Source: Clostridium sp. CAG:138 (GTDB lineage Bacteria > Verrucomicrobiota > Kiritimatiellia > RFP12 > UBA1067). From it: a DNA stretch of 47,550 nucleotides. The stretch spans positions 6,301-53,850 of the forward strand of contig CAVFWS010000001.1 in NCBI GenBank assembly GCA_963626295.1, written 5' to 3'. Shown here in pieces: positions 6,077 through 39,191 of this stretch. The translations under genes were made by a program, and so were the position numbers. Each line of letters starts with the position of its first letter. Position 1 is the stretch's first letter. A model generated the notes under the pieces. It worked only from the letters and a program-made list of their open reading frames with translations, made no database searches and had not been told where the DNA came from.

Positions 6077-6079
6077 GCG

Positions 6080-7240
6080 ATGCGGCGGCAATTGAAGCGT
6101 TGCGTCGTCACAGGCGGCGCAGGATTCATCGGGTCCGCGCTTGTGAGGCGTCTCGTGCGCGACACGGACGCGACGGTGCTCGTGATCGACAAGCTCACGT
6201 ACGCGGGATGCCTCGAGTCCCTGCGGGACGCCGGCGTTCAGCCGTGGTCTGCGCCCGATGCGATGTGCGACGAGATCGGGTCCGCTGGCGTCCCGGGCCT
6301 GCCGCGATGCCAGTTCCTTCAGGCTGACATATGCGACATGGACGCGATGGCCGCGGCGTTCGACGTGTTCCAGCCGGACACCGTGTTCCACCTCGCCGCG
6401 GAATCGCACGTGGACAGGTCGATCGACGGCCCGGGCGAGTTCGTCCGCACGAACGTGACTGGCACCGCGACGCTCCTCCAGGTCGCGCTTGCGTACTGGA
6501 AGGGACTCCCTGACGCTCTGGCGCCCGGCGGCGGACCTTCTGCCTCCAGGGGAGACTTCCGTTTCCAGTACATATCCACCGACGAGGTGTACGGTTCGCT
6601 CGGAGAGTCAGGCTTCTTCACCGAATCGACCCCGTACGCCCCGCACTCCCCGTATTCGGCGTCCAAGGCGGCATCCGACCATCTCGTCCGCGCCTGGCAC
6701 GACACATACGGATTGCCAACGCTCATCACCAACTGCTCGAACAACTACGGGCCATACCATTTCCCCGAGAAGCTGATTCCCCTGACGATACTGAATTGCC
6801 TCGAAGGCAGGCCCATTCCGGTGTACGGGAGCGGCGCGAACGTGCGCGACTGGCTCTATGTGGATGACCACGTGTCGGCGCTTCTGCTCGTGAACGAAAA
6901 GGGCGTTCCGGGCGAGACGTACAATGTTGGGGGGCACAACGAGCGCACCAACATGGAGGTCGTAAAGACGGTGTGCTCCACATTGGATCAGCTTCGCCCA
7001 CGCGGTTCCGGGAAATACGAAGATCTCATAACGCACGTCGCTGACCGCCCAGGCCACGACCTTAGATACGCGATAGACCCGACGAAGCTGATGCGGAACC
7101 TCGGATGGTCGCCGAAGGAGACCTTCGACACCGGGATCCGCAAGACCGTGCAGTGGTATCTCGACAACGAGTGGTGGTGGCGTCCAATCCGCGAGAGACG
7201 GTATGGCGGCGAGCGGCTTGGCGTAGGCGCACGGACATAA
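6080..7240 (+). CDS. rfbB: dTDP-glucose 4,6-dehydratase
   Basis: [10 protein letters not shown] Rossmann motif and [10 protein letters not shown] (YxxxK). Overall pattern typical of RfbB, including [17 protein letters not shown]. Confidence 0.9.
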
Positions 7241-7262: not shown

Positions 7263-10200
7263 GTGTCCGAAAGGTGCGACATATTCGCGAAGGCGTTTTG
7301 CGCGGGCGTTCCGGACGGGGCGCCCGCCGTCGCCTATCAGTCGTTTTCGGGAAGTGCGGCGGCGTTTGCGGCGGCGACGTTGGCCGTTCGAGGCAAGGGC
7401 GTTGTGCTCGCGGTCACGGCGGGGCTTCCCGAGGCCGATGCGCTGTTCGCGGACCTTGAGGCGATAGCGGACGAGGTTGGTGTGCGCGTCCTTGAGTTTC
7501 CGCCCGACATCGAGGATGACAGGTGCTCCACGGCTGCGAGGCTTAAGGTGTCGGCCGTTCTCGGCGCCTACATGATGCGCCCATATCCGCTCGTGATAGT
7601 TTCGCCGGTGGTGGCATTGGCTGGGGCGGTCGCGTCCTCGGATGCAGCGCACAGGGCGGAACTGGATCTTTCACCCGGCCTGAAACCCGATGCCAATACG
7701 GATGCCCCCTCGTTCGCGTCAATCCAGGAGAAGCTGCTCGCGATCGGCTATGAGCGAACTGTGGAAGTCTCGTCGCCGGGCGAGTTCTCCGTGCGAGGAG
7801 GCGTGCTTGACGTATGGAGTCCGGATTCAGAAACCCCAGTGCGGGCGGAATTCTTCGGCGACGAGATAGAGAGCATCCGCAGGTTCGACCCGGGCACGCA
7901 GATGTCTGTCGGCAAGGTCGATTCCGCGAAAATCGCCCCGGTGTCCGTCCCCGGCGATGGAGCGGACGGCGCACCACTGCTTTCGCTCCTCCCCGCGAAC
8001 GGGATCGTGCTTGCGATAGACCACAATTCCTACCCGACCGAGGCGGAATGCATCCGGTCGCGTGGGTTCGGGATGGTGTTTGTCGGCGATCCGGCTCCGC
8101 GGGACGTCCCGACGTGCCCGTTCGTGTCGGCCCCGCTCCCGGGGTTCGCGGAGCAGCGCGTCACGGACGCAATGCTCGTCGAGCGCGTGCGCGAGACGCT
8201 CAGGGGATATCTGGCGGCAGAGAGGCGCAAGGGCGCGCTTGTCGTCGAGGACGACAGGCTTGGCGGCGGATTCTCGTGTGACGGGCTTGTCGTTGTGGCC
8301 AAGAGCGACAGGGTGCCGGGCGTTCGCGGACGGCTTTCGGGGGCAGGGGCGAGGGCGAATGCCGCATCGCATTCGGGCGGACGCCTCTCTGCGTCGATGG
8401 ACATCGAGCCAGGCGAGCTCGTGGTGCATCTCGATTACGGGATAGGACGATTCCTCGGATCGACGGAGGTTGAGGTAGGCGGCGTACGCAGCGAGGTGTT
8501 CACGATAGAGTACGCCGACGGGGCGAAACTCCATGTCCCGGTCGCCCATGCGCACCTCCTTTCCCGCTATGTCGGCGTAAAGGGCGAGAAGGTGAGGCTA
8601 CACCGCCTTGACGGACGCCGGTGGGTCCGCGAGAAGTCCGATGCTCAAAAGGCGGTCGCAGACCTTGCCGCCGCGCTATTGGAGACGCAGGCCCGCCGCG
8701 CCGTCGTGCCGGGGTTCGCGTACGACGTCGAGGCGGACGGCATAGGCGCGTTCGAGGCGGCGTTCCCGTACGAGGAAACCCCCGACCAGCGGAAGGCCAT
8801 CGAGGACGTCAAGCGCGACCTTGCCTCGCGCAAGCCGATGGACCGCCTCATCTGCGGCGATGCCGGATACGGCAAGACCGAGGTCGCGATGAGGGCCGCG
8901 TTCATTGCCGCCATGAACGGGAAGCAGACGGCGCTGCTTGCTCCGACGACGGTCCTTGCCCAGCAGCACTACGAGACGTTCCTCGCGAGGTTCGAGGGCA
9001 CGCCAGTCCGCATTGAGGCGATGAGCCGCTTCCAGTCCGAGGACGAGAAAAGGGGGGCTCGCGCCCGTCTCGCGAGCGGCGCCGCCGACATGGTGATAGG
9101 CACGCACGCGATGCTGTCCTCGAAGATGCGGTTCCATGACCTTGGGCTGATAATCGTCGATGAGGAACAGCGGTTCGGCGTACGTCACAAGGAATACCTA
9201 AAGCGGTTGCGGTCAACTGCGGACGTGCTTACCATGAGCGCGACCCCCATACCGCGCACGCTATACCTGTCGATGACGGGCGCGAGGGACATGTCCGTGC
9301 TGAAGACGCCGCCACGCGAGCGCGTCGCCACGGAGACGAGGATAGTGCGCGACTCCGACGCGACGGTGAAGTCCGCCATCGCCAGGGAACTTGCGCGTGG
9401 CGGGCAGGTGTACTATCTGCACAACAGGGTGATCACCATATCGCGGGCGGAGAGGCGCGTCAGGTCGCTGTTCCCGGACGCAAGGGTGGATGTCGCCCAC
9501 GGGCAGATGCCCACCTCGGTGCTGGCGGACAAGATGCGCGGCTTTTCGGAGGGGCGTACCGATGTGCTCATATGCACCACCATCGTGGAGTCGGGGCTGG
9601 ATATCACCCGCGCGAACACGATAATCGTGGATCGCGCCGACCGCTTCGGGATCGCAGAACTCTACCAGCTTCGCGGGCGCGTCGGACGAGGGGCGCGTCA
9701 GGGCTACGCATACTTTCTGTTGCCGTCCGAAGGGATGATAGATTCCGAGGCCAGGGAACGTCTTGACGCCCTGCGCAAGCATTCGGGGAACGGCAGCGGG
9801 TACAACCTGTCCCTCCGGGACCTGGAGCTGCGCGGGGCCGGCAACCTGCTTGGCAGCGAGCAGTCCGGACACATAGCGGCGATAGGCTTTTCCCTGTACT
9901 GCCAGCTCCTCCGCCGCACGATAGCGAAGATGCGCGGCGAGGCGGTGCCAGATGTCATTGATGTTTCCGTCAACCTCGACTTCATCGACTTCTCGCCCGG
10001 CACCGCCGATCCCGGTTCCGGCGCGTCGCTCCCATACGATTATGTGGAGGATGAGTCGCAGAGGATGGACTTCCATCGCCGCCTTGCGGAAGTCGCTTCC
10101 GTAAAGGATGTTGCGCGGCTGAGGCGGGAGCTCGCCGACAGGTATGGAAGGCTGCCCCCCGCCGCCGTGCGGCTTGTCCGCCTCGCCGAGTTCAGGATGA

Positions 10201-10361
10201 GATGCGCCACGAAGCGCGTGGCGCGGTTGGACGTGAAGGGCGTCAAGGCGATATTCTACCTGCAGGGCAGCCGCGACCCGTCCTTTGTGGAACGTCTGTA
10301 CGGGGACACGCCAGACCAGAAGATCTCATCCCTATTCAGGATCGTGGATGCCTTATCCTGA
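7263..10361 (+). CDS. mfd: transcription-repair coupling factor
   Basis: GTG start. CarD-like segment (VVHLDYGIGRFLG). Helicase motifs GDAGYGKTEVAMRAAF and DEEQRFGV. Length 1032 aa. Confidence 0.9.
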   Translation: MSERCDIFAKAFCAGVPDGAPAVAYQSFSGSAAAFAAATLAVRGKGVVLAVTAGLPEADALFADLEAIADEVGVRVLEFPPDIEDDRCSTAARLKVSAVLGAYMMRPYPLVIVSPVVALAGAVASSDAAHRAELDLSPGLKPDANTDAPSFASIQEKLLAIGYERTVEVSSPGEFSVRGGVLDVWSPDSETPVRAEFFGDEIESIRRFDPGTQMSVGKVDSAKIAPVSVPGDGADGAPLLSLLPANGIVLAIDHNSYPTEAECIRSRGFGMVFVGDPAPRDVPTCPFVSAPLPGFAEQRVTDAMLVERVRETLRGYLAAERRKGALVVEDDRLGGGFSCDGLVVVAKSDRVPGVRGRLSGAGARANAASHSGGRLSASMDIEPGELVVHLDYGIGRFLGSTEVEVGGVRSEVFTIEYADGAKLHVPVAHAHLLSRYVGVKGEKVRLHRLDGRRWVREKSDAQKAVADLAAALLETQARRAVVPGFAYDVEADGIGAFEAAFPYEETPDQRKAIEDVKRDLASRKPMDRLICGDAGYGKTEVAMRAAFIAAMNGKQTALLAPTTVLAQQHYETFLARFEGTPVRIEAMSRFQSEDEKRGARARLASGAADMVIGTHAMLSSKMRFHDLGLIIVDEEQRFGVRHKEYLKRLRSTADVLTMSATPIPRTLYLSMTGARDMSVLKTPPRERVATETRIVRDSDATVKSAIARELARGGQVYYLHNRVITISRAERRVRSLFPDARVDVAHGQMPTSVLADKMRGFSEGRTDVLICTTIVESGLDITRANTIIVDRADRFGIAELYQLRGRVGRGARQGYAYFLLPSEGMIDSEARERLDALRKHSGNGSGYNLSLRDLELRGAGNLLGSEQSGHIAAIGFSLYCQLLRRTIAKMRGEAVPDVIDVSVNLDFIDFSPGTADPGSGASLPYDYVEDESQRMDFHRRLAEVASVKDVARLRRELADRYGRLPPAAVRLVRLAEFRMRCATKRVARLDVKGVKAIFYLQGSRDPSFVERLYGDTPDQKISSLFRIVDALS

Positions 10362-10527
10362 ATCCGGCAGTTGAGTCTCCGTGCGAGCCATGGAGAAATG
10401 TAGAGATTCCAACTGCCGATCCAGGGCAAAAGGGAAAGCCACACGGATGTGCGGCTTGCGAATGGTTGCCCCATAAGGACGCGAGGCTTGACAAGCAGAT
10501 TCATTTTGCTTTCACCGCGACGCCCAC

Positions 10528-10556
10528 TTGATTTCCTTTGCGCAAGGCAATATAAT
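10528..10556 (+). promoter_or_regulatory. sigma70-type promoter (TTGATT-17-TATAAT)
   Basis: TTGATT at 10528-10533, a 17-nt spacer, TATAAT at 10551-10556. It lies 25 nt upstream of the ferredoxin ATG, which has GGAGG at 10572-10576. Confidence 0.6.
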
Positions 10557-10581
10557 ATGCGCAAGAATTTTGGAGGTACTG

Positions 10582-10788
10582 ATGTCGAGACCGATAATTG
10601 ACGAAGATTGCTGCAAGGGATGCGGACGCTGCGTTTCCGCCTGCATGAAAAAGTGCCTTGAGATTGCCGCAGACCATCTGAACGCGGCAGGGCTGAAGCC
10701 TGTCCGCTATGTCGGGGAGGGGTGCGTCGGGTGCGGAATGTGCTTCTACAATTGCCCTGAGCCGTATGCCATCAGGGTTGAGCGGTGA
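10582..10788 (+). CDS. 4Fe-4S dicluster ferredoxin-type subunit (2-oxoacid:ferredoxin oxidoreductase delta-like)
   Basis: ORF 10528..10788 trimmed to the ATG at 10582, behind GGAGG. Two cluster motifs: CKGCGRCVSAC and CVGCGMCFYNCP. Confidence 0.75.
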   Translation: MSRPIIDEDCCKGCGRCVSACMKKCLEIAADHLNAAGLKPVRYVGEGCVGCGMCFYNCPEPYAIRVER

Positions 10789-10831
10789 TGCGGGAATGTC
10801 CCGTTGACGAAAGGCTGAGGACAGGCAAGCT

Positions 10832-11890
10832 ATGACTAAATTTGTTAAGAGCAATGAAGCGGTTGTGATGGGCGCCCTTTATGCGGGATGCGAGCTGTAT
10901 TTCGGATACCCGATCACTCCGGCAAGCGAAATCGCGCATGGTGCGGCCAAATGGTTCCCCATGCTGGGGCGCACCTTTGTGCAGGCGGAATGCGAAACCG
11001 CGAGCGTGAACATGATGTTCGGCGCCGCCGCAGCCGGGAAGCTCTGCATGACCGCCACTTCGGGGCCTGGGTTCTCCCTGATGCAGGAGGGCATCTCGTA
11101 CCTGGCCGGTGCGGAATTGCCGGCCGTGATAGTCAACGTGAATCGCGCCGGTCCGGGGCTTGGCAACGTATATCCGGAGCAGAGCGACTACACTCCGGCG
11201 GTGAAGGGCGGCGGGCACGGGAACTACAGGACATTCACCGTGGCGCCGGCAAGCGCCCAGGAAATGTTCGACCTCACGAGGCTTGCCTTCCGCATGGCGG
11301 CGAAATGGCGCACTCCCGCAGTGGTGTTCGCCGACGGCCTTCAGGGGCAGATGATGGAAAGCGTGCGGCTGCCGGACGATGAGGATCCGAAGCCCGACTT
11401 TTCCGGCTGGGCAGCACAGGGGGAGCCCAAGACCCGCGGCAATCTCGTGAAGTCCATATTCCTCGATGCCGCCCAGCAGGAGGAGTTCAACATCCACCTT
11501 CAGAAGAAGTATGCCGATATGGAGGCGGACGCCAAGTCGGAGGCGTATCTTGCGGAAGACGCCGAGCTGCTGATCGTCGCGTACGGGATCTCCTCGAGGA
11601 TTGCCCGCACAACCGCTGAGACGCTTCGCGCAGAAGGCGTCAGGGCTGGCTGCTTCCGCCCCATCACGCTGAGTCCATTCCCAAGGGAAGGGCTTGCAAA
11701 GGCCGCGAAGGGACGCAAGCTTCTGGTGATCGCGCTTGATGCCGGACAGTTCGCCGACGATGTGCGCCTGAATCTCGCAAAGGCGGGCCTTGGCGACGAG
11801 GCGGCATCCCTCCGATTCATAAACCGCATGGGCGGTCAGGTAGTTGCCGTGGACGATGCCGTAAAGGCCGCGAAGCGCGTCTTGGCATGA
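10832..11890 (+). CDS. 2-oxoacid:ferredoxin oxidoreductase alpha subunit (VorB/KorA-like)
   Basis: N-terminus MTKFVKSNEAVVMGALYAGCELYFGYPITPASEI is characteristic of alpha subunits. Length 352 aa. Confidence 0.85.
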   Translation: MTKFVKSNEAVVMGALYAGCELYFGYPITPASEIAHGAAKWFPMLGRTFVQAECETASVNMMFGAAAAGKLCMTATSGPGFSLMQEGISYLAGAELPAVIVNVNRAGPGLGNVYPEQSDYTPAVKGGGHGNYRTFTVAPASAQEMFDLTRLAFRMAAKWRTPAVVFADGLQGQMMESVRLPDDEDPKPDFSGWAAQGEPKTRGNLVKSIFLDAAQQEEFNIHLQKKYADMEADAKSEAYLAEDAELLIVAYGISSRIARTTAETLRAEGVRAGCFRPITLSPFPREGLAKAAKGRKLLVIALDAGQFADDVRLNLAKAGLGDEAASLRFINRMGGQVVAVDDAVKAAKRVLA

Positions 11891-20377: not shown

Positions 20378-20525
20378 TGGCGGAGCCTTTCATTATGAAG
20401 ATGCCCTGGGGATCGCGGGCCTCGCCGGACGAGTCCCTCATCGAGTAGTAGATCACCAGCGCAAGGACCAGGGAGATCACCTTGAGACCCCAGTTGCGCC
20501 TGAAGATGTCCAAAAACGCCGTCAC
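20358..20525 (-). CDS. 55-aa membrane peptide resembling only the N-terminal anchor of CdaR/YbbR
   Basis: GTG at 20525 overlaps the cdaA stop (GTGA). The sequence [27 protein letters not shown] matches the usual start of YbbR-domain CdaR proteins. The ORF ends after 55 codons and overlaps the ftsK start by 20 nt. Confidence 0.35.
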   Translation of the reverse strand: MTAFLDIFRRNWGLKVISLVLALVIYYSMRDSSGEARDPQGIFIMKGSANGGSGK

Positions 20526-21370
20526 TTTCCGCTGCTCCTTCCGAACTTCGCAAGCCTTTCCCTGAACCATTCCGCCGCCTTCTCGCCGACGGCCTTCTTC
20601 GCCGGCATGGCCTTCCTCACCCAGCGCAGGACGGATGCCTTGGATACTTCGCCGTCGCAATTGTAGCGGATGAGCTTGCCGTTGTGGGCGACCGATATGC
20701 GCCCGGTCTCCTCCGACACGACCAGGACCAGCGCATCCGTCTCCTCCGATATCCCCACTGCGGCCCTGTGGCGCATGCCCGATTCGTAGAGGTCGTGGTT
20801 CACCGACACCGGGAACAGGCAATGCGCGGCGGCGAGCCGGCCATTCCTTATCGTGACCCCGCCATCGTGGAGCGGCAATGGCGGCGTGAATACCGACACC
20901 AGAAGCTCCCTCGACGGGATGGCGTCGATGGCGACGCCGCTTTCCTCGTAGCCGCGAAGCGATATGCCGCGCTCGAACGCGATCAGGGCCCCGGTCTTCC
21001 TGTGGGCGAGGTCGAAGATCGCCTCGGTCATCCTTTCGGGCGTGATGTGCTTGCCGTCAAACTGGCGCGAGCCTTCCGAGAAGAGCAGGGACCCCAGGGC
21101 GGCGAGCGTGCGCCTTATCTCCGGCTGGAACAGCACCACCGTGGATAGCGCGAGGTAGAGCAGCATCATCTGGAGAAGCCTCGCCAGCACGTCGAAATGG
21201 AACAGGAACGAGAACGCTATGGATGCGCCGAACAGGATGCCCACGCCGGTAAGCACCTGCCCGAAGCGGGTGCCGCGCGCGGCCTTGAGCACCGAATAGA
21301 TCGCGAAGTACAGGATCGCGATCTGCACGACGTCGCGCGCAAGGTTCCAGTTCAGCCATTCCCACGTCAT
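20522..21370 (-). CDS. cdaA: diadenylate cyclase CdaA
   Basis: Three N-terminal TM segments. DisA_N motifs [17 protein letters not shown] and [26 protein letters not shown]. The start overlaps the ftsH stop (ATGA). Confidence 0.9.
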
Positions 21371-23259
21371 TCCGTCTTCTCCAGTCCGAGCAGCGCCTCT
21401 ATGTCGCGCCCGTCCATCGACTCCTTCTCAAGGAGGGCGGTGGCGAGGCATTCGAGCCTGTCGCGGTTTTCCTTCAGGAGGTTCTCGGCCCTCGCGAACG
21501 CATCGTCGACGAGCCGCTTCACCTCCGCGTCGATGCCTTCGGCCGTCTTCTGCGAGAAGGGGGGCGGCATCGGGTCGGGCGAGAACTGGCTTGGCTCCAC
21601 GAACGACTGGAACCCGTATGCGTCGCTCATTCCGTATCTGCAGATCATGTCGCGGGCGATCTGCGTGGCCTGCCGTATGTCCTGCGCGGCGCCGGTGGAG
21701 ATGTCGCCTGTCTTGATGGACTCCGCTATGCGTCCGCCGCAGCAGATGCACATCTCGTCCATGAAGTAGCTCCTTGTGCGGTTGAGCACATCTTTCTCGG
21801 GAAGGGCCATGGTTGCGCCGAGCGCGCGTCCGCGGGGGATTATCGTCACCTTGTGGAGCGGGTCCGCGTTCGGCAGGAGCAGCTGAAGGAGCGCGTGCCC
21901 CGCCTCGTGCCACGCCGTGGTCTCCCGATCCTTGTCCGTGAGGTTGGCCGACTTGCGCTCGCGTCCCCACAGCACCTTGTCGCGGGCCTCCTCCAGCATC
22001 TCCTGCGTCACCCCGGCAAGTCCCTTGCGGACCGCAAGGAGCGCCGCCTCGTTCAGCAGGTTCGCAAGGTCTGCGCCGGAGAATCCCGGCGTGCCGCGCG
22101 CAATGCGCGCAAGGTCCGCGTCCGGCGCGAACTTTATCTTTGCGCCGTGCAGCTTCAGTATGTCCTCGCGTCCCTTGAGCGACGGGAGGTCCACGTATAT
22201 CTGGCGGTCGAAGCGGCCAGGACGCAGGAGCGCCGGGTCGAGGACGTCCGGGCGGTTCGTGGCCGCGATTATGATCACGCCCTCGTTCGCGTCGAAGCCG
22301 TCCATCTCCACGAGCATCGCGTTGAGGGTCTGGTCGTTGGAGTGGCCGCCGAACGCATTCGCGCCCGTGCGCTTCGCGCCCACGGCGTCTATCTCGTCTA
22401 TGAATATCAGGCACGGCGCGGAGCGCTTCCCCTGCTCGAACATGTCGCGCACCCGGCTCGCGCCCACGCCGACGAACATCTCCTCGAAGTCGGAGCCGGA
22501 GATGGAGAAGAACGGCACCTTCGCCTCGCCCGCGATCGCCTTGGCGAGGAGGGTCTTCCCCGTGCCGGGCGGGCCGACGAGCAGCACGCCCTTGGGAATC
22601 TTGCCGCCGAGCTTCGTGAACTTGGCTGGCGACTTGAGGAACTCCACTATCTCCTGCACCTCCTCCTTCGCCTCGTCCACGCCGGCCACGTCGTTGAACG
22701 TGACCTTCCTCTTGGACTTGTCCTCGTTCAGGAGGCGGGCCTTGGACTTGCCGAACCCGAACGGCCCGCCGCCGCCGCCCATCTTCCTGTAGAAGACGAA
22801 CCAGAAGAACCCCAGCAGCAGCAGGAAGAACAGCAGCTGCTGGAAGAGCGGGCCTATCATGGGCGAGCGCTCCGTGACGGGGCAGTCTATTCCGTTCTCG
22901 ACGAGCCAGGACATCAGCCTCTCGTTCTCGCCCGGCACGAGGCGGACCCTGAATGCGGCGTTGGTGCCCGAACGGGGCAGGTATTCGCCGCGCAGGTACG
23001 TGCTGCCGGAATCGAGGTCGCGCACGCGCTCCACCTTGGCGACGCGGCGCTCCTCCACCGCGCGCCTGAACCCGGTGACGGAGAGGTCGTCGATCCTGTC
23101 GCCGCCGGCCTGGCCCATGAAGCGCATCGCCACGAACGTGGCCGCCACGATAAGGAGCGCGAGCCACCCGCTCCTGGATGGGTTTATGTTCGCGCCCTTC
23201 GGCACGTCCCTGCCCGTACGCGCGTGCGCACGCCCCTCTTTTTTCTTCTCTTGAGACAT
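21367..23259 (-). CDS. ftsH: ATP-dependent zinc metalloprotease FtsH
   Basis: [13 protein letters not shown] Walker A, an SRH region and the HEAGHAL zinc motif. The start is trimmed to the ATG at 23259, because the upstream 25 codons run through the promoter region. Confidence 0.92.
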
Positions 23260-23269
23260 ATAGCGGCAA

Positions 23270-23278
23270 AGTATACCA
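23270..23278 (-). promoter_or_regulatory. extended -10 promoter element (TGGTATACT) for ftsH
   Basis: The minus strand reads TGGTATACT-ttgccgctat-ATG, so only 10 nt separate the -10 from the start codon and no Shine-Dalgarno fits. An A/T tract lies just upstream. Confidence 0.5.
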
Positions 23279-23316
23279 AAAAAAAGCGGTTCCGTGGGGT
23301 CGCAATGCGCGGGAAA

Positions 23317-23325
23317 TGGTATAAT
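23317..23325 (+). promoter_or_regulatory. extended -10 promoter element (TGGTATAAT) for the methyltransferase gene
   Basis: TGGTATAAT lies 14 nt upstream of the ATG at 23340. No Shine-Dalgarno lies between them. It is divergent from the ftsH element 45 bp away. Confidence 0.5.
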
Positions 23326-23339
23326 CCCCCGCACTTGAC

Positions 23340-24974
23340 ATGGCAGAGAGACTACAACAGTGCACGATGCGGCGCAAATCGTCGCGGAAGGCGTCTGCGC
23401 GCACGGCGCACACGGTGGACGCGGCGGCGGGCGGCAATGCAGACGGCGAGGCGGCGGCGAAGAAGGTGGTCCTCGTCGGGACGTACAGGGCGGGGCAGCT
23501 GGAACGCTGGCCCGGCCTCTACAACTATCCCCTCAACGCGGGCGACACGGTTGACGCCGAGGCGGCGAAGCGGGTCAACGAGATCTGGCTCTTCAACGGC
23601 GCGAAGGGCGGACGGTACTTCGCGGCGGAGTTCGTCGGCACGTTTGCGCGCGGCGAACTCGTCCGCGACTGGGGATATCAGGCGGGTGGCGCGGCGCACG
23701 GCGAAAAGTACCTGCTCTACCGGATCCGGCCGGCCTACGCGCCCGCGAACACGCCGGACGCGCTTGCGGCGGATGTGGAGCGCGTGATCGTGCGCGCGGA
23801 GGACTTCGCGAAGCGCTCGCCGAAGATCGCGCGAGCGATCAAGGCGTATCTCGAATCGCCTGACCGCAGCGGCCCCGGCCTCGCGGACCGACTTCCGCCG
23901 GTTCTCCTGCAGGTGCCGCGCGCGGCCCTCTGCGTCTGCGAGCCGGGCGTACAGATGGAGTTCTGGAACGCTTTGCCGATGGGACCGGGGCCTTCTGCTC
24001 CGTTTGCATCGACGAGGAGCGATGTCAACATCGAGTTTGGCGATAGCCTTAGACTTTGCGAAAGGTGGGAACGTCCGACTGTGATTGTCTCCGACGGCCC
24101 CTATGGGCTGGCGAGCTATCCTGGCGATCCGGCGACGCCAGAGGGATTGGCGGACTTCTACCGTCCGTTCTTGGAAATATGGCACGACCGTGCCTTGCCG
24201 TCGGCAACCCTTTGGTTCTGGAACACCGAGCAGGGATGGGCCAATTGCCATCGGGCAATCGAAGAGGCCGGATGGAAGTTCAGGAATTGCCACATCTGGA
24301 ACAAGGGAATGTCCCATGTGGCGGGGAACTGCAACACGCGGACGATCCGCAAGTACCCTGTAGTCACGGAAGTGTGCGCCCAGTACGTGCGCAAGAACAT
24401 GTTGCCGTCGAACGGCGCGGAACTGCCGCTCAAGGACTGGATGCGCGAGGAATGGCGGCGTACGGGGCTTCCGTTTCGCCTTGCGAATGTCGCATGTGGG
24501 GTCAAGGATGCCGCAACGAGGAAATACTTTGCCTCCGACCATCTTTGGTATTTCCCGCCGTCCGAGGCATTTGTCCGCATCGCGGCCTATGCGAATGAAT
24601 TCGGAGACAAGTTAGGACGTCCGTATTTCACGAAGTCGGACGGGAAGCCTTTTTCGGCGGGCGAGTGGGATTTGATGCGTGCGAAGTTCCATTGCGAGGT
24701 GGGCGTCTCGAACGTCTGGGATCTCCCTGCCGTCCGGGGGGGCGAACGCATCAAGGAAGGGGGATCTTGTCTGCACATGAACCAAAAACCATTGCAGTTG
24801 CTTATGCGGATCATTCGATCTTCGTCCGATCCCGGAGATGTCGTCTGGGAGCCGTTCGGCGGATTGTGTTCGACGGCGATTGCGGCTGTCCGTACAGGGC
24901 GAAGGGCGTTTGCCGCGGAAATGAATCCTCGGTTCTTCGACGTCGCAAAGGAGAGGCTGTCCCATGAAACATGA
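23340..24974 (+). CDS. beta-class (N6-adenine or N4-cytosine) DNA methyltransferase with a ~205-235 aa uncharacterised N-terminal module
   Basis: The motif order IV-then-I is typical of PF01555-type enzymes. Motif IV is [11 protein letters not shown] (nt 24090-24107). [14 protein letters not shown] is the conserved QKP block. Motif I is [15 protein letters not shown]. The N-terminal ~205 codons have no motif I recognise. Alternative internal starts are at 23955 and 23979. Confidence 0.8.
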
Positions 24975-25893
24975 ATCGAAAAGGCGGACGACCGTGAACA
25001 TCAAGCGCATTGAACCGTCCGACACGTGGCCGCACAAAAGGCTGTGGCGTGGCGTCATCGATGCTCTCAAGGCGCTCCCCGCGCACTTCCACAGCGATAC
25101 GTTCATCGAGGGCGTGAATGCGACGGACGTTTTCACGTTGAACTCGGCGCTGGGCGCGACGATCGAGAACCAGGTTGTCGAGACGCTGAATACCATCCGG
25201 AGCGTTTGGGATCCTGACAATGCCTATGGCACGTATCTGTTTGTTAGACAGCCCCAGTCATTCCCGGATGTCATCCTGAAGAACCTTTCGGACGAGACGG
25301 CGAAGCCAATCATGGGGATTGAACTGAAAGGATGGTACCTCTTGGCGAAGGAGGCCGAGCCGAGCCTGCGATTCCAGCAGACGAGTGCGGCGTGTGCCGA
25401 GGCGGACGTGATCATGGTCGTGCCGTGGGTCTTGAACAGTGTGATCTCAGGGCGGCCTCGAATCTATTCGCCTTACATCGAGTCGGCACGGTATGCTGCG
25501 GACTATCGGAACTGGCATTGGAGGCAGATGCGGGGGGAGGGCATTGCATCGGAGATCAGCATTCCGTCCCAGGCTGAGCCGTATCCACGCAAGGCCGATG
25601 CTACAAACGACAAGCCGCAGTCGGACAATGGCAAGAATTTCGGGCGAATTGCCCGTACGGGGCTGATGGATGACTATCTGGCCAAGATGCAGCTTCAGCC
25701 AGTTTGTGGCATACGAGCCGCCTACTGGCTTGAGTTCTTCAAGATATTCCATCAAGACGCGACGGACGAGCAAATCGAGAAAGCCCTTGATCGTCTTCGT
25801 GTCAAGGTTGACGGCATCCCCGAATCGGCGCAGAAGCGGAGTTTCTTGGATGTTCTGGCCGTTCTTGAGGCACATTGTCGCGAATTGACGTAA
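24964..25893 (+). CDS. putative PD-(D/E)XK restriction endonuclease
   Basis: Overlaps the methyltransferase stop by 11 nt. Has helix Glu (GATIENQ), then FPDVIL (D102) and GIELKGW (E120, K122) with canonical PD...ExK spacing. GC is about 50-53% in hand-counted lines. Confidence 0.6.
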   Translation: MKHESKRRTTVNIKRIEPSDTWPHKRLWRGVIDALKALPAHFHSDTFIEGVNATDVFTLNSALGATIENQVVETLNTIRSVWDPDNAYGTYLFVRQPQSFPDVILKNLSDETAKPIMGIELKGWYLLAKEAEPSLRFQQTSAACAEADVIMVVPWVLNSVISGRPRIYSPYIESARYAADYRNWHWRQMRGEGIASEISIPSQAEPYPRKADATNDKPQSDNGKNFGRIARTGLMDDYLAKMQLQPVCGIRAAYWLEFFKIFHQDATDEQIEKALDRLRVKVDGIPESAQKRSFLDVLAVLEAHCRELT

Positions 25894-25913
25894 GGTGTGA
25901 CGAGGTCGTGCAG

Positions 25914-26102
25914 ATGAGCAAAAGGTATCGTGTCCTGCTGCGTGAGACGTTCACGTGCTACGTTGACGTTTGCGCGGACAGCCGCGACGAGGCGCGAGAA
26001 CTCGTCGAGGAACAGGTCGAGTGCGCCGAGATTGTCGCTCCTCGCGATTACGATGGCTTTGACCGGAAGGTTTCGGTCATGCGCAGGCTGAAAGACGAAT
26101 GA
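25914..26102 (+). CDS. small acidic protein, DpnD/PcfM-like pattern
   Basis: 62 aa, starting 20 nt after the nuclease stop with GAGG upstream. The pattern YRVLLRETFTCYVDVCADSRDEARELVEEQVECAEIV...DYDGFD resembles, from memory, small DpnD/PcfM-family proteins. An antisense ORF also exists, so the strand call rests on this pattern. Confidence 0.4.
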   Translation: MSKRYRVLLRETFTCYVDVCADSRDEARELVEEQVECAEIVAPRDYDGFDRKVSVMRRLKDE

Positions 26103-26294
26103 ATCTCGCGCTGTTCTTTTTCTGCTTTCAGCCCAGGTTGTTCTCGTCATGCCTCCCGTGCCATGCACAACGAGGGCGTCGTCGCCACGGCACATCGGCG
26201 GCAGAGGGCTGCATCCGGATCGTCAATGTCTAGATGGTGCAATGAACCGGAAATCGCAAATGAAAAAATCGGATTTATCGCTGCCCTTTCGATT

Positions 26295-32746: not shown

Positions 32747-33503
32747 ATGGGTACTGGCGAAACCTTCGGCTTCACTCCGCCGTCCAACGCGACCGTCTGC
32801 GCGGACTGGCTCGCGTTCGGCGCGGCGTTCGCGCCGACAGCCCCGGCGGAGCCATGGAACTGGCCGGACGGCGAGACGGACGGACGGCACTTCGTGCTCG
32901 TGCACGGCTACAACGTGAACGCCCCTGCGTCCCGCCTCTGGGCTATCGCGATGTTCAAGCGGCTATGGTGGGCGGGCTCGGGCGCCGCGTTCACCGCCGT
33001 CGACTGGAAGGGGGACGATTCGCAGATGTCCGTTCCCGCGAAGGGCGACATCTCGCCGAACTACTACGTCAACGTGAAGAACGCCTTCATGACGGCGGAC
33101 GCGCTGACGCGGCTCTGCGGAAGCCTCTCTGGCGAGAAGGTCATGCTCGCACACTCGCTCGGGAACGTGCTCGTGTCGTCCGCCGCCGTCGACCACGGGC
33201 TGTCATTCGAGATACTATATGCTCAACGCCGCCGTGCCGATGGAGGCGTATTATGAGGGAGATAAGGATGACCTGATGGTGGACGGGGCTTGGAAGGGGA
33301 TTGACGAGAGGTTTCGTGCTTCGAGTTTCGCCGCCTTATTTGCGTCGGCGACGAATGACTTTCGATGTGGGCTTTCGTGGAGTGGCGTCATCTCCGTGAG
33401 ATTCCAATACTACCTCAACCCGACGCCGCTTGACCGCAACCTCGAATGGGACATGAGGAACAACGGCTTCAAGGGCGAGTGCCCGCCCTACCGCCTGCCG
33501 TAG
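32747..33503 (+). pseudogene. 5'-truncated, frameshifted remnant of an alpha/beta-hydrolase (lipase-like) domain
   Basis: GRHFVLVHGYN and a nucleophile-elbow-like LAHSLGN in one frame, up to ...DHGLSFE (about 33210). The sequence continues as YYMLNAAVPMEAYYEG... in another frame (ORF 33219..33503). The upstream part of the ORF reads through the REP-like element. Confidence 0.5.
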
Positions 33504-33568
33504 GCGCGACGATAGCCATTTCCGTGTGGTTGCCACAATCAATGCTGGATCGCATGGCACAGCGGTTA

Positions 33569-33577
33569 TGATATAAT
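33569..33577 (+). promoter_or_regulatory. extended -10 element (TGATATAAT)
   Basis: AT-rich island upstream of fabG, with AAGGA at 33609-33613. Confidence 0.45.
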
Positions 33578-33622
33578 TACAGCCATATTTCTTGAAACGG
33601 AAACCAGAAAGGAATGAATCTG

Positions 33623-34387
33623 ATGGGTAGTCTTGATGGCAAGGTGGCGATCGTCACGGGTGCGGCCCGCGGCATCGGGCAGAAGATCGCGGTGAAGCTG
33701 GCTTCGGTCGGCGCCAATGTCGCCGTGGTGGACCTGAAGCCCGAGTGGTGCGCCGAGACGGTGGCGGCGGTGGCGGCGGCCGGCGCGGAGGCCATTGCGC
33801 TGGGATGCAACGTGGCGGACTCGAAGGACGTCGATGCGTGCGTAAAGTCCGTCATCGCCAGGTTCGGCAAGGTGGACATAATGGTCAACAACGCCGGAAT
33901 CACCAAGGATGGGCTCCTGATGCGGATGAGCGACGAGGACTGGGACGCCGTCATCAACGTGAACCTGAAGGGCACGTTCCTCTTCACGCGGGCCGTGGCG
34001 CGACCGATGATGAAGAACAAGGCGGCGGACGGCACGCAGATTGGCGGCTCCATCGTGAACCTCGCGTCCGTGGTGGGCATCATGGGGAATGCAGGCCAGG
34101 CCAACTACACGGCCTCCAAGGGCGGCGTGATCGCCCTCACGAAGACCACCGCGAAGGAGCTCGGCTCGCGCAACATACGCTGCAATGCCGTCGCGCCGGG
34201 CTTCATCCAGTCCAAGATGACGGACGTGCTGCCCGACGACGTAAAGAAGGCCTACATGGATACGATCCCGCTCAAGAGGTTCGGCACCGCGGACGACATC
34301 GCGAACTGCGTTGCGTTCCTCGTGTCCCCCGAGGCCTCGTACATCACCGGGCAGATCATCTCGGTGAATGGCGGGATGATCGGATGA
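33623..34387 (+). CDS. fabG: 3-oxoacyl-[ACP] reductase
   Basis: GKVAIVTGAARGIG, NNAGIT and YTASKGGV (YxxxK). The ATG at 33623 is 9 nt after AAGGA. The in-frame ATG at 33614 abuts the SD and is less likely. Confidence 0.9.
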   Translation: MGSLDGKVAIVTGAARGIGQKIAVKLASVGANVAVVDLKPEWCAETVAAVAAAGAEAIALGCNVADSKDVDACVKSVIARFGKVDIMVNNAGITKDGLLMRMSDEDWDAVINVNLKGTFLFTRAVARPMMKNKAADGTQIGGSIVNLASVVGIMGNAGQANYTASKGGVIALTKTTAKELGSRNIRCNAVAPGFIQSKMTDVLPDDVKKAYMDTIPLKRFGTADDIANCVAFLVSPEASYITGQIISVNGGMIG

Positions 34388-34399
34388 CCCGTCCATTCC

Positions 34400-34428
34400 T
34401 TGATTAGCCGGGCTTGGTTTGGTATAAT
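34400..34428 (+). promoter_or_regulatory. sigma70-type promoter for carB (TTGATT-17-TGgTATAAT)
   Basis: TTGATT at 34400-34405, a 17-nt spacer ending in TGG, TATAAT at 34423-34428. AAGGAG at 34493-34498. Confidence 0.65.
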
Positions 34429-34509
34429 CGCGCCCCGACATCCGTTAACGGGTCGAGTCGGATCCGGCGCGGGATTCCGCGCGATGAAACATAAGGAGTT
34501 TTGTGCAAA

Positions 34510-37742: not shown

Positions 37743-39191
37743 ATGGAAAACGCATCACGTGATTCCGCTTGTCGCGGGAAGGCGGCTGGCGGCTGCAGCC
37801 GCAGGGACTTCGTGGCGATGGGTGCCATGGCCGCAATGGCGGCCGGCGCCGGATACGCTTCGGCGCAGGGGCGTCCTGCGGGAGCGGCGGGCGGCCGCCC
37901 GTTCAAGGCGATCACGATCTCCACGACGGATTGCCTGTTCGAGCGCGAGCCGATGGTGCGTCCGTTTGGCTTCAAGGGCGGATATCTCACCGAAGGGTGG
38001 GTCGTGGCGTCGTGCGTGAGGTCGTCCTCCGGCAGGTTCGGCATCGGCCTCGGCACCCAGAGCTGCCTGTGGAGCGACGCGAGCGTGTTTTCGTCCAACT
38101 CCGAGGCGGGCGGCAACGCGATGATGTTCGCGATGACCCAGCATGCGCTGAAGCTGCTCGAGGGGCGTTCGTTCGTCTCGCCGGTGGAGCTCAACGACTG
38201 GCTGTGGCCGCAGGTGTGGGAATACGGCAAGCGCATAACGTCCAACCCGAAACTGAGGGCGACGTTCGCGCTCAATGCGCTCGTATCCGTGGACAACGCC
38301 ATATGGGTGCTGTTCGCCAGGGAGAACGGCCTGACGTCCTTCGACGAGATGATCCCGGATGCGTACAGGCCGGCTCTCTCGGCGCACCATTCGAAATGCG
38401 CCTCCATCCCCCTGTTCTCGTACAAGGTGCCGCCGGCCGAGATCAAGTCCGCCGTGGATTCCGGGTACTTCTTCATGAAGATCAAGATCGGTCAGCCCGG
38501 CACGCAGGAGGAGATGCTCGCGAAGGACATGGCCCGCGTGTCGCAGATACACGCAGTCCTGAAGGATTGCCGTACGCCTTACACGAAGACGGGCAGGCTC
38601 CCGTACTATTTCGACGCCAACGGGCGCTACGCCAAGAAGGAGACGCTTTTCAGGTTCGTGGATCACCTGAAGAGGATCGGCGCGTACGGGCAGGTCGCGA
38701 TAATTGAGGAGCCGTTCGACGAGTATGCGGACATCGACGTGAACGACATCCCCCTGCGCCTTGCCGCCGACGAGTCAGCGCATACCGTAAGGGATGCGCT
38801 TGAGCGGATCGACATGGGATACAGGGCGATGGCGCTGAAGCCGATAGCGAAGACCATGTCGATGTCCATGAAGATCGCCCAGGCCGCGTGCGACAAGGGC
38901 ATTCCCTGCTTCTGTGCCGACCTTACGGTCGCACCGGTCCTCGTCGAGTGGAACAAGTCGGTCGCGGCGCGTCTGCCGGCGTTCCCGGGGATTGGCGGTC
39001 TCGGGCTTGTCGAGACGAACGGGCACCAGAACTTCCGCAACTGGGAGGCCATGCGAAAGGACCTCGCGTACCCGGACGCGCACTGGACGCGCACCGAGCG
39101 CGGCGTATTCGAGTGCGATTCCGACTACTACGCGAAATCGGGCGGGATACTTGCGCCCATGCCGCGCTACGAGAAGATGTTCCGCATCTGA
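37743..39191 (+). CDS. Tat-signal-bearing enolase-superfamily (mandelate racemase / muconate lactonizing enzyme-like) protein
   Basis: The real start lies inside the 805-aa read-through ORF 36774..39191, with GGGAG at 37730-37734. Twin-arginine signal CSRRDFVAMGAMAAMAAGAGYASA-QG. Superfamily-like blocks FFMKIKIG (KxK), YFDANGRY, IIEEPF and LAADES. Confidence 0.7.
   Translation: MENASRDSACRGKAAGGCSRRDFVAMGAMAAMAAGAGYASAQGRPAGAAGGRPFKAITISTTDCLFEREPMVRPFGFKGGYLTEGWVVASCVRSSSGRFGIGLGTQSCLWSDASVFSSNSEAGGNAMMFAMTQHALKLLEGRSFVSPVELNDWLWPQVWEYGKRITSNPKLRATFALNALVSVDNAIWVLFARENGLTSFDEMIPDAYRPALSAHHSKCASIPLFSYKVPPAEIKSAVDSGYFFMKIKIGQPGTQEEMLAKDMARVSQIHAVLKDCRTPYTKTGRLPYYFDANGRYAKKETLFRFVDHLKRIGAYGQVAIIEEPFDEYADIDVNDIPLRLAADESAHTVRDALERIDMGYRAMALKPIAKTMSMSMKIAQAACDKGIPCFCADLTVAPVLVEWNKSVAARLPAFPGIGGLGLVETNGHQNFRNWEAMRKDLAYPDAHWTRTERGVFECDSDYYAKSGGILAPMPRYEKMFRI

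Follow-up and report, generated by a model that had tools for sequence, protein, structure and literature searches.

The open reading frame (ORF) at positions 23340 to 24974, on the plus strand, of a 47,550-nucleotide (nt) stretch of Clostridium sp. CAG:138 DNA (contig CAVFWS010000001.1; the whole stretch is hereafter the window) encodes 544 amino acids (aa) and changes in base composition partway along its length. We consider it highly likely that this ORF encodes a two-domain DNA methyltransferase carried in a 2.8-kb mobile Type II restriction-modification (R-M) cassette (23313-26118), and that the step in G+C content at third codon positions (GC3) marks the joint of a portable N-terminal domain, here called the N module, with the linker and catalytic core that follow it. 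In the mechanism that we propose, the step at about 23955-23970 would be the joint between the N module (aa ~41-205) and the linker plus beta-class core; the two sides would differ in history because recombination takes place among cassettes of this family, with one class of breakpoints lying precisely where the N module ends. The DNA of the N module would be as GC3 rich as a Kiritimatiellota-type host, while the linker, the core, the putative restriction endonuclease (REase) gene, and the DpnD-like gene would come from a less ameliorated lineage, whose core and REase would also circulate without the N module. The complete mosaic would then have been transferred whole to its place between ftsH and ilvC. 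The ORF lies with ftsH on one side and with a 309-aa ORF (ORF309), a 75-aa ORF, and ilvC on the other. It consists of a leader, the N module, a linker, and a beta-class N6/N4 catalytic core and has full-length homologues.

Compositional step within the methyltransferase ORF

We scanned the binary GC3 series of the 544 codons for a single change point by likelihood, with 2000 permutations. The best change point fell after codon 210 (nt 23969), with a log-likelihood ratio of 12.2 and a 2-unit support interval of nt 23828-23993; none of the 2000 permutations reached this value, and their maximum was 10.5. GC3 was 0.867 to the left of the change point versus 0.686 to the right. Counted by domain, 145 of the 165 codons of the N module (codons 41-205, 23460-23954; GC3, 0.88) end in G or C, versus 217 of the 314 codons of the core (24030-24974; GC3, 0.69) (Fisher p=3.6e-6). 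The compositional step inside the ORF, which an earlier note on this DNA had placed near 23950, is real. The G+C counts in that note (39/60 at 23581-23640 and 45/60 at 23881-23940) were exact, the GC3 saturation that it described over 23460-23950 came to 144/164 codons (0.88), and the two in-frame ATG codons that it named, at 23955 and 23979, are both present. The fall in GC content that it saw after 23955 was right in direction and overestimated in size; total GC content there is 0.58-0.59, not about 52%, and the first 30-codon windows alone have values of 0.52-0.57.

The left part of the ORF has a GC3 like that of the resident genes (ftsH, 0.88; a DAC-domain gene at 20522-21370, 0.87; ilvC, 0.95), and the right part has a GC3 like that of the downstream REase gene (0.71) and DpnD-like gene (0.70). 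Since the codon usage of ftsH, the DAC-domain gene, and ilvC predicts a GC3 of about 0.90 for both parts, amino acid content is not the cause of the step. An overlapping antisense ORF was also rejected as a source of constraint, as the minus-strand ORF at 23352-24542 extends across the seam and is of a kind common in GC-rich DNA.

The N module travels with the cassette

Positions 23313-26118 of the window align with four related loci (L001-L004) at 90.8% nt identity over 2806 bp. The shared block holds a promoter-like box and the genes for the 544-aa methyltransferase, the probable 309-aa restriction enzyme, and the DpnD-like protein. Its flanks are an ApbE gene and a Tle1-like gene in L001-L004 and ftsH and ilvC in the window. 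The GC content of the block is 0.60 versus 0.64 for the window, and the GC3 of the core and REase is about 0.70 versus 0.87-0.95 for the neighboring genes. The same DNA is thus found between unrelated flanks and is unlike its flanks in composition, as we would require of a horizontally acquired cassette. In assemblies of the same species (99.4% nt identity) the cassette is at the same site; among the four conspecific contigs with exact ilvC matches there was no empty ftsH-ilvC site, each contig either having the cassette or starting too near ilvC to tell. More distant two-module cassettes are located elsewhere, after a GHMP kinase gene or between nrdD and nrdG, and in each of these contexts a partner gene of ~308 aa lies 3' of the methyltransferase gene.

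At the left end of the cassette (23313-23339), where homology to L001-L004 begins at 23313, there is an extended -10 promoter-like box, TGGTATAAT (23317-23325), 14 nt 5' of the ATG at 23340. The sequence ATGGTATAAT...ACATGGCAGAGA is invariant across the window, L001, and three variants that lack the N module (L013-L015). A simple sigma-70 scan did not flag the box and gave no -35 match. We infer that the methyltransferase transcript would have a very short 5' leader or none. The right end (26099-26119, with homology ending at 26118) contains ATGAATCTCGCGCTGTTCTTT, a 7-codon remnant (MNLALFF) of a Tle1-like/DUF2235 gene, which in the window is joined to the end of the DpnD-like gene. A Tle1-like gene adjoins the cassette in L001, where it matches PF09994, and in L010 and L011, where it begins MNLALFFEGTGQG. 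In the window, the final 20 nt of the shared block thus correspond to codons 1-7 of the Tle1-like gene; the window copy therefore came from a Tle1-adjacent copy and moved as one piece, and the remnant is a footprint of the cassette's earlier place beside that gene.

Both modules are present in more than 30 homologue clusters (490-584 aa, 45-91% identity, ~92% query coverage). The same database search also gave many core-only proteins of 330-430 aa, and the collection of related loci with the full-length alignment returned mostly methyltransferases without the N module. The N module is conserved in 34 homologues, and its alignment holds no conserved stretch of 7-10 columns. In close pairs, the ratio of nonsynonymous to synonymous divergence (dN/dS) was 0.29-0.34 for the N module and ~0.6-1.2 for the linker and leader. 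The N module is under purifying selection.

These results bear on where the acquired DNA begins. The earlier note had put the island boundary inside the ORF and had offered, as one explanation, that a resident gene of ~200 codons lost its 3' end and now reads into an inserted methyltransferase. In this scenario, a host gene beside ftsH would have been truncated by insertion of a foreign methyltransferase-REase unit and would read into it by accident. The N part is host-like in GC3 (0.88 versus 0.87-0.95 for the neighbors) and the rest of the ORF is not, as such an origin predicts. Moreover, N modules elsewhere stand in frame with mere fragments of R-M genes (~55 aa from the start of a C5 methyltransferase, ~60 aa from the end of an NgoMIV-type enzyme, or part of ORF309), so accidental read-through fusions do occur in the N-module family. 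However, cassette homology starts at 23313 and not at ~23955, and therefore the island begins ~27 nt upstream of the ATG, outside the ORF interior; the promoter, the first codons, and the N module all lie inside the recurring unit and are found with it between other flanks. The same fusion is kept down to 45% identity, its N module is under purifying selection, and no other N-module copy is present in the window. In L005/L012, the N module is as AT rich at third positions as the rest of the cassette (GC3, 0.44-0.46 versus 0.48 for the core), and it is thus not a host gene there. We give almost no credence to a boundary inside the ORF or to a truncated resident gene.

Variants without the N module and the start of translation

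Three loci from Kiritimatiellota metagenome-assembled genomes (L013-L015) encode the core and the restriction enzyme without the N module. Their core and REase are 91.5% and 92% identical in aa sequence, respectively, to those of the window, and at the DNA level they match the window with 88-89% nt identity between 24030-24033, where the codons for IEFGDS begin, and 25888. They have in common with the window the TGGTATAAT box, the start ATGGCAGAGA(G/A)ACTAC, and the first ~18 codons of the basic N-terminal leader (aa 1-40, MAERLQQ...; 23340-23459), which over 23340-23392 is 79.5% identical in nt sequence to L013/L014. The leader is without detectable constraint (dN/dS ~1.1 versus L001). Compared with these variants, the ORF has the N module as an extra in-frame block, flanked by a leader and a core that both forms share. 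Natural enzymes lacking the N module are 328-365 aa long. In L013, the methyltransferase gene (6013-6855 of that locus) is broken after 280 aa by what is presumably a frameshift or an assembly error, and the adjoining restriction gene is intact.

The core might also be translated separately, from the ATG at 23955 or 23979, as a methyltransferase of normal length, with the N part being a separate product or untranslated. Both ATGs are in frame, and the natural enzymes without the N module show that a core-sized protein is viable. Nevertheless, the residue encoded by the first ATG, Met206, is M in about one-quarter of the two-module homologues and L, I, E, G, or R in the others, and Met214 falls in the hypervariable linker. 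No Shine-Dalgarno-like sequence lies in the 20 nt 5' of either ATG, whereas ilvC has AAGGAG; the sigma-70 scan found no promoter-like site inside the methyltransferase ORF; and the reading frame stays open, under constraint, across the N module (dN/dS 0.3). The variants without the N module themselves use the upstream promoter and ATG that they have in common with the window, not an internal start. Separate translation of the core, another proposal of the earlier note, gains no support from these observations and is quite improbable, although initiation at a low level within the ORF is conceivable.

Different genealogies on the two sides of the step

Between the N module and the core lies a hypervariable linker of 25 codons (23955-24029; GC3, 0.68), which holds both internal ATGs; compositional and phylogenetic breaks fall at its 5' edge. 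In comparisons of the window with L010/L011, nt identity is ~89% in the N block, 59-63% in the linker, and 85-90% in the core, and the aa identity of the linker is 0.36-0.40. The seam is 76 nt upstream of 24030, where the DNA homology of the variants without the N module resumes.

We compared topologies using parsimony-informative sites in four taxa (the window, L001, L010, and L011). The N block favored grouping the window with L011 and L001 with L010 (13 sites versus 3 and 4), while the linker and the three thirds of the core favored grouping the window with L001 and L010 with L011 (69 versus 5 and 6), so that the topology switches exactly at the boundary of the N module and the linker (Fisher p=6e-9). 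It switches back in the 3' two-thirds of the REase gene (36 versus 6, p=9e-18), with a second recombination breakpoint at ~25300-25600, inside ORF309. The 3' part of the L001 REase gene has a p-distance of 0.017 to that of L010 and is 15% different from that of the window, and the GC3 of the REase gene is 0.82 in L001 versus 0.71 in the window. Synonymous divergence (dS) in the N block versus the core was 0.26 versus 0.17 for the window and L001 and 0.22 versus 0.71 for the window and L010. A constant rate difference cannot explain these values, since the ratio reverses between the two pairs. The topology switch and the dS reversal together show that the compositional change point coincides with a recombination breakpoint. 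The cassette has a mosaic structure, and its seam, where the N module ends, is a junction both of domains and of recombination.

A higher GC3 in the N module than in the core recurs in other cassettes: 0.87 versus 0.66 in L001, 0.90 versus 0.79 in L010, 0.89 versus 0.78 in L011, 0.90 versus 0.78 in L099, 0.79 versus 0.40 in L007, 0.75 versus 0.52 in L101, 0.77 versus 0.59 in L103, and 0.72 versus 0.62 in L016. The N module exceeded the core in seven of the eight independent two-module cassettes, with a mean difference of +0.16 (Wilcoxon p=0.016). The step is absent from L005/L012 and from the N-module genes of L090/L093 (GC3, 0.63-0.65 versus 0.58-0.62 downstream), which rules out an intrinsic GC3 richness of the N module. 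Relatives of the core and REase are found at 55-60% identity in Sorangium, Poribacteria, Dehalococcoidia, and other taxa. Read most simply, the difference means that the N-block DNA has been resident in GC-rich genomes for longer than the widely transferred core and REase cargo; it could stem from repeated exchange of the cargo or from GC-biased conversion between N modules. The proposal of the earlier note that the two halves have different histories is borne out by the breakpoint at the seam, the homology of the variants without the N module from 24030, and the GC3 difference in seven of eight cassettes. That note had also named distant two-module homologues of uniform composition as an observation that would count against its view; the two-module homologues exist, in the more than 30 clusters at 45-91% identity, but uniform composition is not their rule.

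It could be argued that the ORF has a single genealogy and that the step arose in place, by GC-biased gene conversion or by mRNA selection on the 5' third of the gene. A recurrent process of this kind would fit the GC3 difference in several independent lineages better than a single event does, and the low N-block dS among the four cassettes is as expected with repeated homogenization. No second copy of the N module that could act as a conversion donor was found in the window. The change of topology at the boundary of the N module and the linker means that the genealogies differ, and the absence of the effect in L005/L012 and L090/L093 argues that it is not intrinsic to the module. We regard an in-place origin as unlikely, and as gene conversion is itself recombination, this explanation partly merges with the recombination joint that we favor.

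Several points weigh against a recombination joint of a portable domain. dS is expected to be depressed in a GC3-saturated block, and low divergence of the N block alone is therefore no proof of recombination; for this reason, the argument rests on the topology switch and the reversal of the dS ratio. The four-taxon signal in the N block is modest, at 13 informative sites. A higher GC3 in the N module than in the core in several lineages is unexplained by one recombination event and takes an extra assumption, either repeated cargo replacement or GC-biased gene conversion. Finally, with a structural membership threshold of a Foldseek E value of <1e-3 or a template modeling (TM) score of >=0.5, searches with 175-aa and 120-aa models of the N module against the PDB and BFVD gave no significant match; the best PDB matches had TM scores of 0.35-0.41 and E values of 0.19-1.5, and BFVD matches had E values of >=0.01, all below significance.

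The N module as a portable domain

A profile search of 1.84 billion representative proteins gave 375 N-module clusters (50% identity) at E<=1e-3, mostly from gut and rumen Kiritimatiellota-type metagenomes. With rare exceptions, the N module in these clusters begins within the first ~25 residues. Its partners include PF01555 proteins, complete PF00145 C5 cytosine methyltransferases (587-931 aa), the starts of Dam-like methyltransferases, ORF6N, DUF3791, and an NgoMIV-type tail (the last ~60 aa). The varied partners and partner fragments show that the N module is portable and that the DNA 3' of it is often rearranged. Of the explanations offered in the earlier note, a genuine chimeric protein is the one that the data favor: the N module is conserved, has a dN/dS of ~0.3, and is also fused to complete C5 methyltransferases and to other proteins.

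Two partial fusions were seen among these proteins. In P0149/P0130 (L090-L094), the N module is in frame with only the first ~55 residues of a C5 methyltransferase. This arrangement is found on at least 12 contigs, with ORF6N, HNH_2, and RadC genes following; being so conserved, it may be a stable leftover or a gene put to a new use, in surroundings that resemble a mobile element. The other, P0177, is a 137-aa deletion derivative encoded on an 81-kb contig, in which the N module, cut short after ~100 residues, runs directly into residues ~211-235 of ORF309.

AlphaFold2 models of the N module had predicted local distance difference test scores of 87.2 for the 175 residues and 92.6 for the beta-rich 120 residues, with a layout of a beta-rich subdomain (aa ~41-155) followed by a helical subdomain. 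On the strength of a dN/dS of 0.29-0.34, the confident models, an N-terminal position in the 375 clusters, and the many fusion partners, the N module is a real domain. It had no match in Pfam, NCBIfam, PHROGs, PADLOC, or a PDB profile search, and aa 1-205 searched as a unit matched nothing in Pfam or NCBIfam. The Pfam DCD, EVE, ASCH, and YTH profiles gave no relevant match to 23 N modules even at E<=10. No helix-turn-helix family was found in the N module in Pfam scans, and the model shows a mainly beta fold that ends in a short helical tail. This uncharacterized family is apparently undescribed.

The matches with the best TM scores, all below the threshold, were to ASCH (3iuw, 2e5o, 9kyl, and 8alz) and YTH (4u8t, 7ywb, and 4rdn) structures. 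Further subthreshold matches were to the EVE-type domains of modification-dependent nucleases (6yex and 9u7u) and to phage DUF3850 (BFVD, E 0.05-0.1). Neither sequence profiles nor the structural threshold placed the N module in the PUA-like superfamily, which we keep as a lead only. Five aromatic residues of the N module (Tyr49, Trp57, Tyr61, Tyr113, and Tyr124) are invariant or nearly so.

The N module may bind nucleic acid as an accessory domain, possibly with the fold of a highly diverged PUA-like/ASCH-like barrel plus a helical extension, and it may influence the place or time at which the fused methyltransferase acts. Since near-identical cores exist without it, the N module is probably dispensable for catalysis. 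A more far-reaching proposal, which we hold to be doubtful, is that the N module is a divergent PUA-like reader that serves as a portable 5' handle for R-M and defense cargo; the cargo (methyltransferases of three classes, nucleases, ORF6N, and others) would be swapped repeatedly by recombination at the module end, coupling a nucleic acid state (e.g., hemimethylated or modified DNA) to whichever enzyme is attached. Just as speculative is the idea, within this handle proposal, that the swaps resemble the C-terminal exchange of polymorphic toxins and would leave behind a host-like N block, a GC3 seam, and in-frame cargo fragments.

Methyltransferase core and partner genes

The core is predicted to be a beta-class N6/N4 DNA methyltransferase. 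PF01555 matched aa 248-538 (72.2 bits versus a cutoff of 26.7; profile positions 3-221 of 221), and a motif IV-like sequence, SDGPYG (aa 251-256; 24090-24107), precedes motif I, EPFGG (aa 504-508), which is the circularly permuted motif order of the beta class. Residues D252, G253, Y255, and G256 of motif IV are invariant in 39 aligned sequences, and the core has a dN/dS of 0.07-0.13. In its above-threshold PF01555 match, its motif order, and the alignment of its C-terminal S-adenosylmethionine region, the core is like CcrM, M.MboIIA, M.RsrI, and DpnA, to whose structures that region aligns. It is unlike them in having SDGPYG for (D/S)PP(Y/F), with Gly in place of the first Pro; in the ~200 residues of conserved Trp/Cys-rich sequence that separate motifs IV and I throughout the homologue family; and in its extra N-terminal domain.

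ORF309 (24964-25893, plus strand) is a probable Type II restriction endonuclease gene. It overlaps the methyltransferase stop by 11 nt and adjoins the methyltransferase gene in nearly all loci examined, at 48-93% aa identity. Separate, adjacent, and co-inherited methyltransferase and endonuclease genes are the arrangement expected of a Type II system. The assignment also draws on a single PADLOC match, to REase_II PDLC03583 (E=2.1e-7, aa 93-183); Pfam, NCBIfam, and PDB sequence searches gave no match for ORF309.

The 75-aa ORF (25875-26102, plus strand; likely ATG at 25915) is a DpnD/PcfM-like gene (PF14207, E=1.5e-6). It accompanies the close two-module cassettes (L010, L011, and L097) and is absent from L013-L015; tblastn among L010-L031 gave matches in L010/L011 only, and Pfam did not detect the gene in the more distant two-module cassettes L005 and L007. 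As the DpnD-like gene and the N module are both missing from the variants without the N module, they bracket the shared core and REase unit.

Relation to known systems

PUA-like DCD domains are often fused to methyltransferases, with a PD-(D/E)XK nuclease gene next to them (Bell, Wolf & Koonin 2020, PMC7641849). Such DCD/EVE-methyltransferase fusions are the closest known architecture, sharing with the ORF an N-terminal, beta-rich, probably nucleic-acid-binding domain and an adjacent nuclease gene. The N module differs from these domains in having no DCD, EVE, ASCH, or YTH profile match, a structural similarity below significance, and an extra helical subdomain, and it is joined to three methyltransferase classes as well as to partners that are not methyltransferases.

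The Type II methyltransferases M.SsoII, M.EcoRII, and M.MspI have an N-terminal regulatory DNA-binding region, a short helix-turn-helix of ~70 residues. The ORF is like these enzymes in having an extra N-terminal region on a complete methyltransferase, no separate C protein, and related enzymes without the region, and it is unlike them in that the N module has ~165 residues and is mostly beta. The 27-nt leader of the cassette showed no conserved repeat resembling an operator. In R-M allelic recombination, or "domain movement," and in pneumococcal DpnI/DpnII cassette replacement, target recognition domains or whole cassettes are exchanged at a fixed locus. The cassette described here is similar in having mosaic R-M genes that recombine at conserved segments and in carrying a DpnD-family gene. 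It differs in that an accessory N-terminal domain is exchanged and the whole cassette also changes its chromosomal position.

The ORF thus falls within a known kind of system, that of Type II methyltransferases which bear an accessory domain at the N terminus and lie in recombining cassettes, and expectations about R-M systems are not overturned; the domain itself appears to be undescribed. It defines a small family found on at least three methyltransferase classes and on other defense island proteins. Should the domain read a DNA or RNA state, bacterial methyltransferases would be steered in a new way; should it act mainly as an anchor for recombination, R-M specificities would have a new route of exchange. 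The system is compact, and it is directly testable because the core is only ~9% different between natural variants that have the domain and those that lack it; these variants make a clean experimental system. A GC3 step within a gene can mark a domain-level recombination joint and not an insertion boundary, which matters when such seams are read as island edges.

Additional observations on the cassettes and the window

In L011, the right end of the cassette (26032-26118 of the window) is present twice, at 8052-8115 and 9979-10066 of that locus. The two copies bracket an insert of ~1.9 kb that encodes a 506-aa protein (MTLLEEIQNGESAVLEFKE...), which looks like a later insertion with its junction duplicated.

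The ftsH gene, on the minus strand, is listed at 21367-23334 with a GTG start at 23334. Gene calls in conspecific assemblies give an FtsH of 630 aa with the start MSQEKKKEG at ~23259, and the listed start is probably too far upstream. A start at ~23259 leaves ~53 nt between the ftsH start codon and the left end of the cassette, so insertion of the cassette may have displaced the ftsH promoter.

Elsewhere in the window, 10001-11500, 33001-34500, and 37758-38774 are also low in GC content (0.58-0.60 in 1-kb windows, with a GC3 of 0.57 in one ORF), and these stretches may be further acquired segments.

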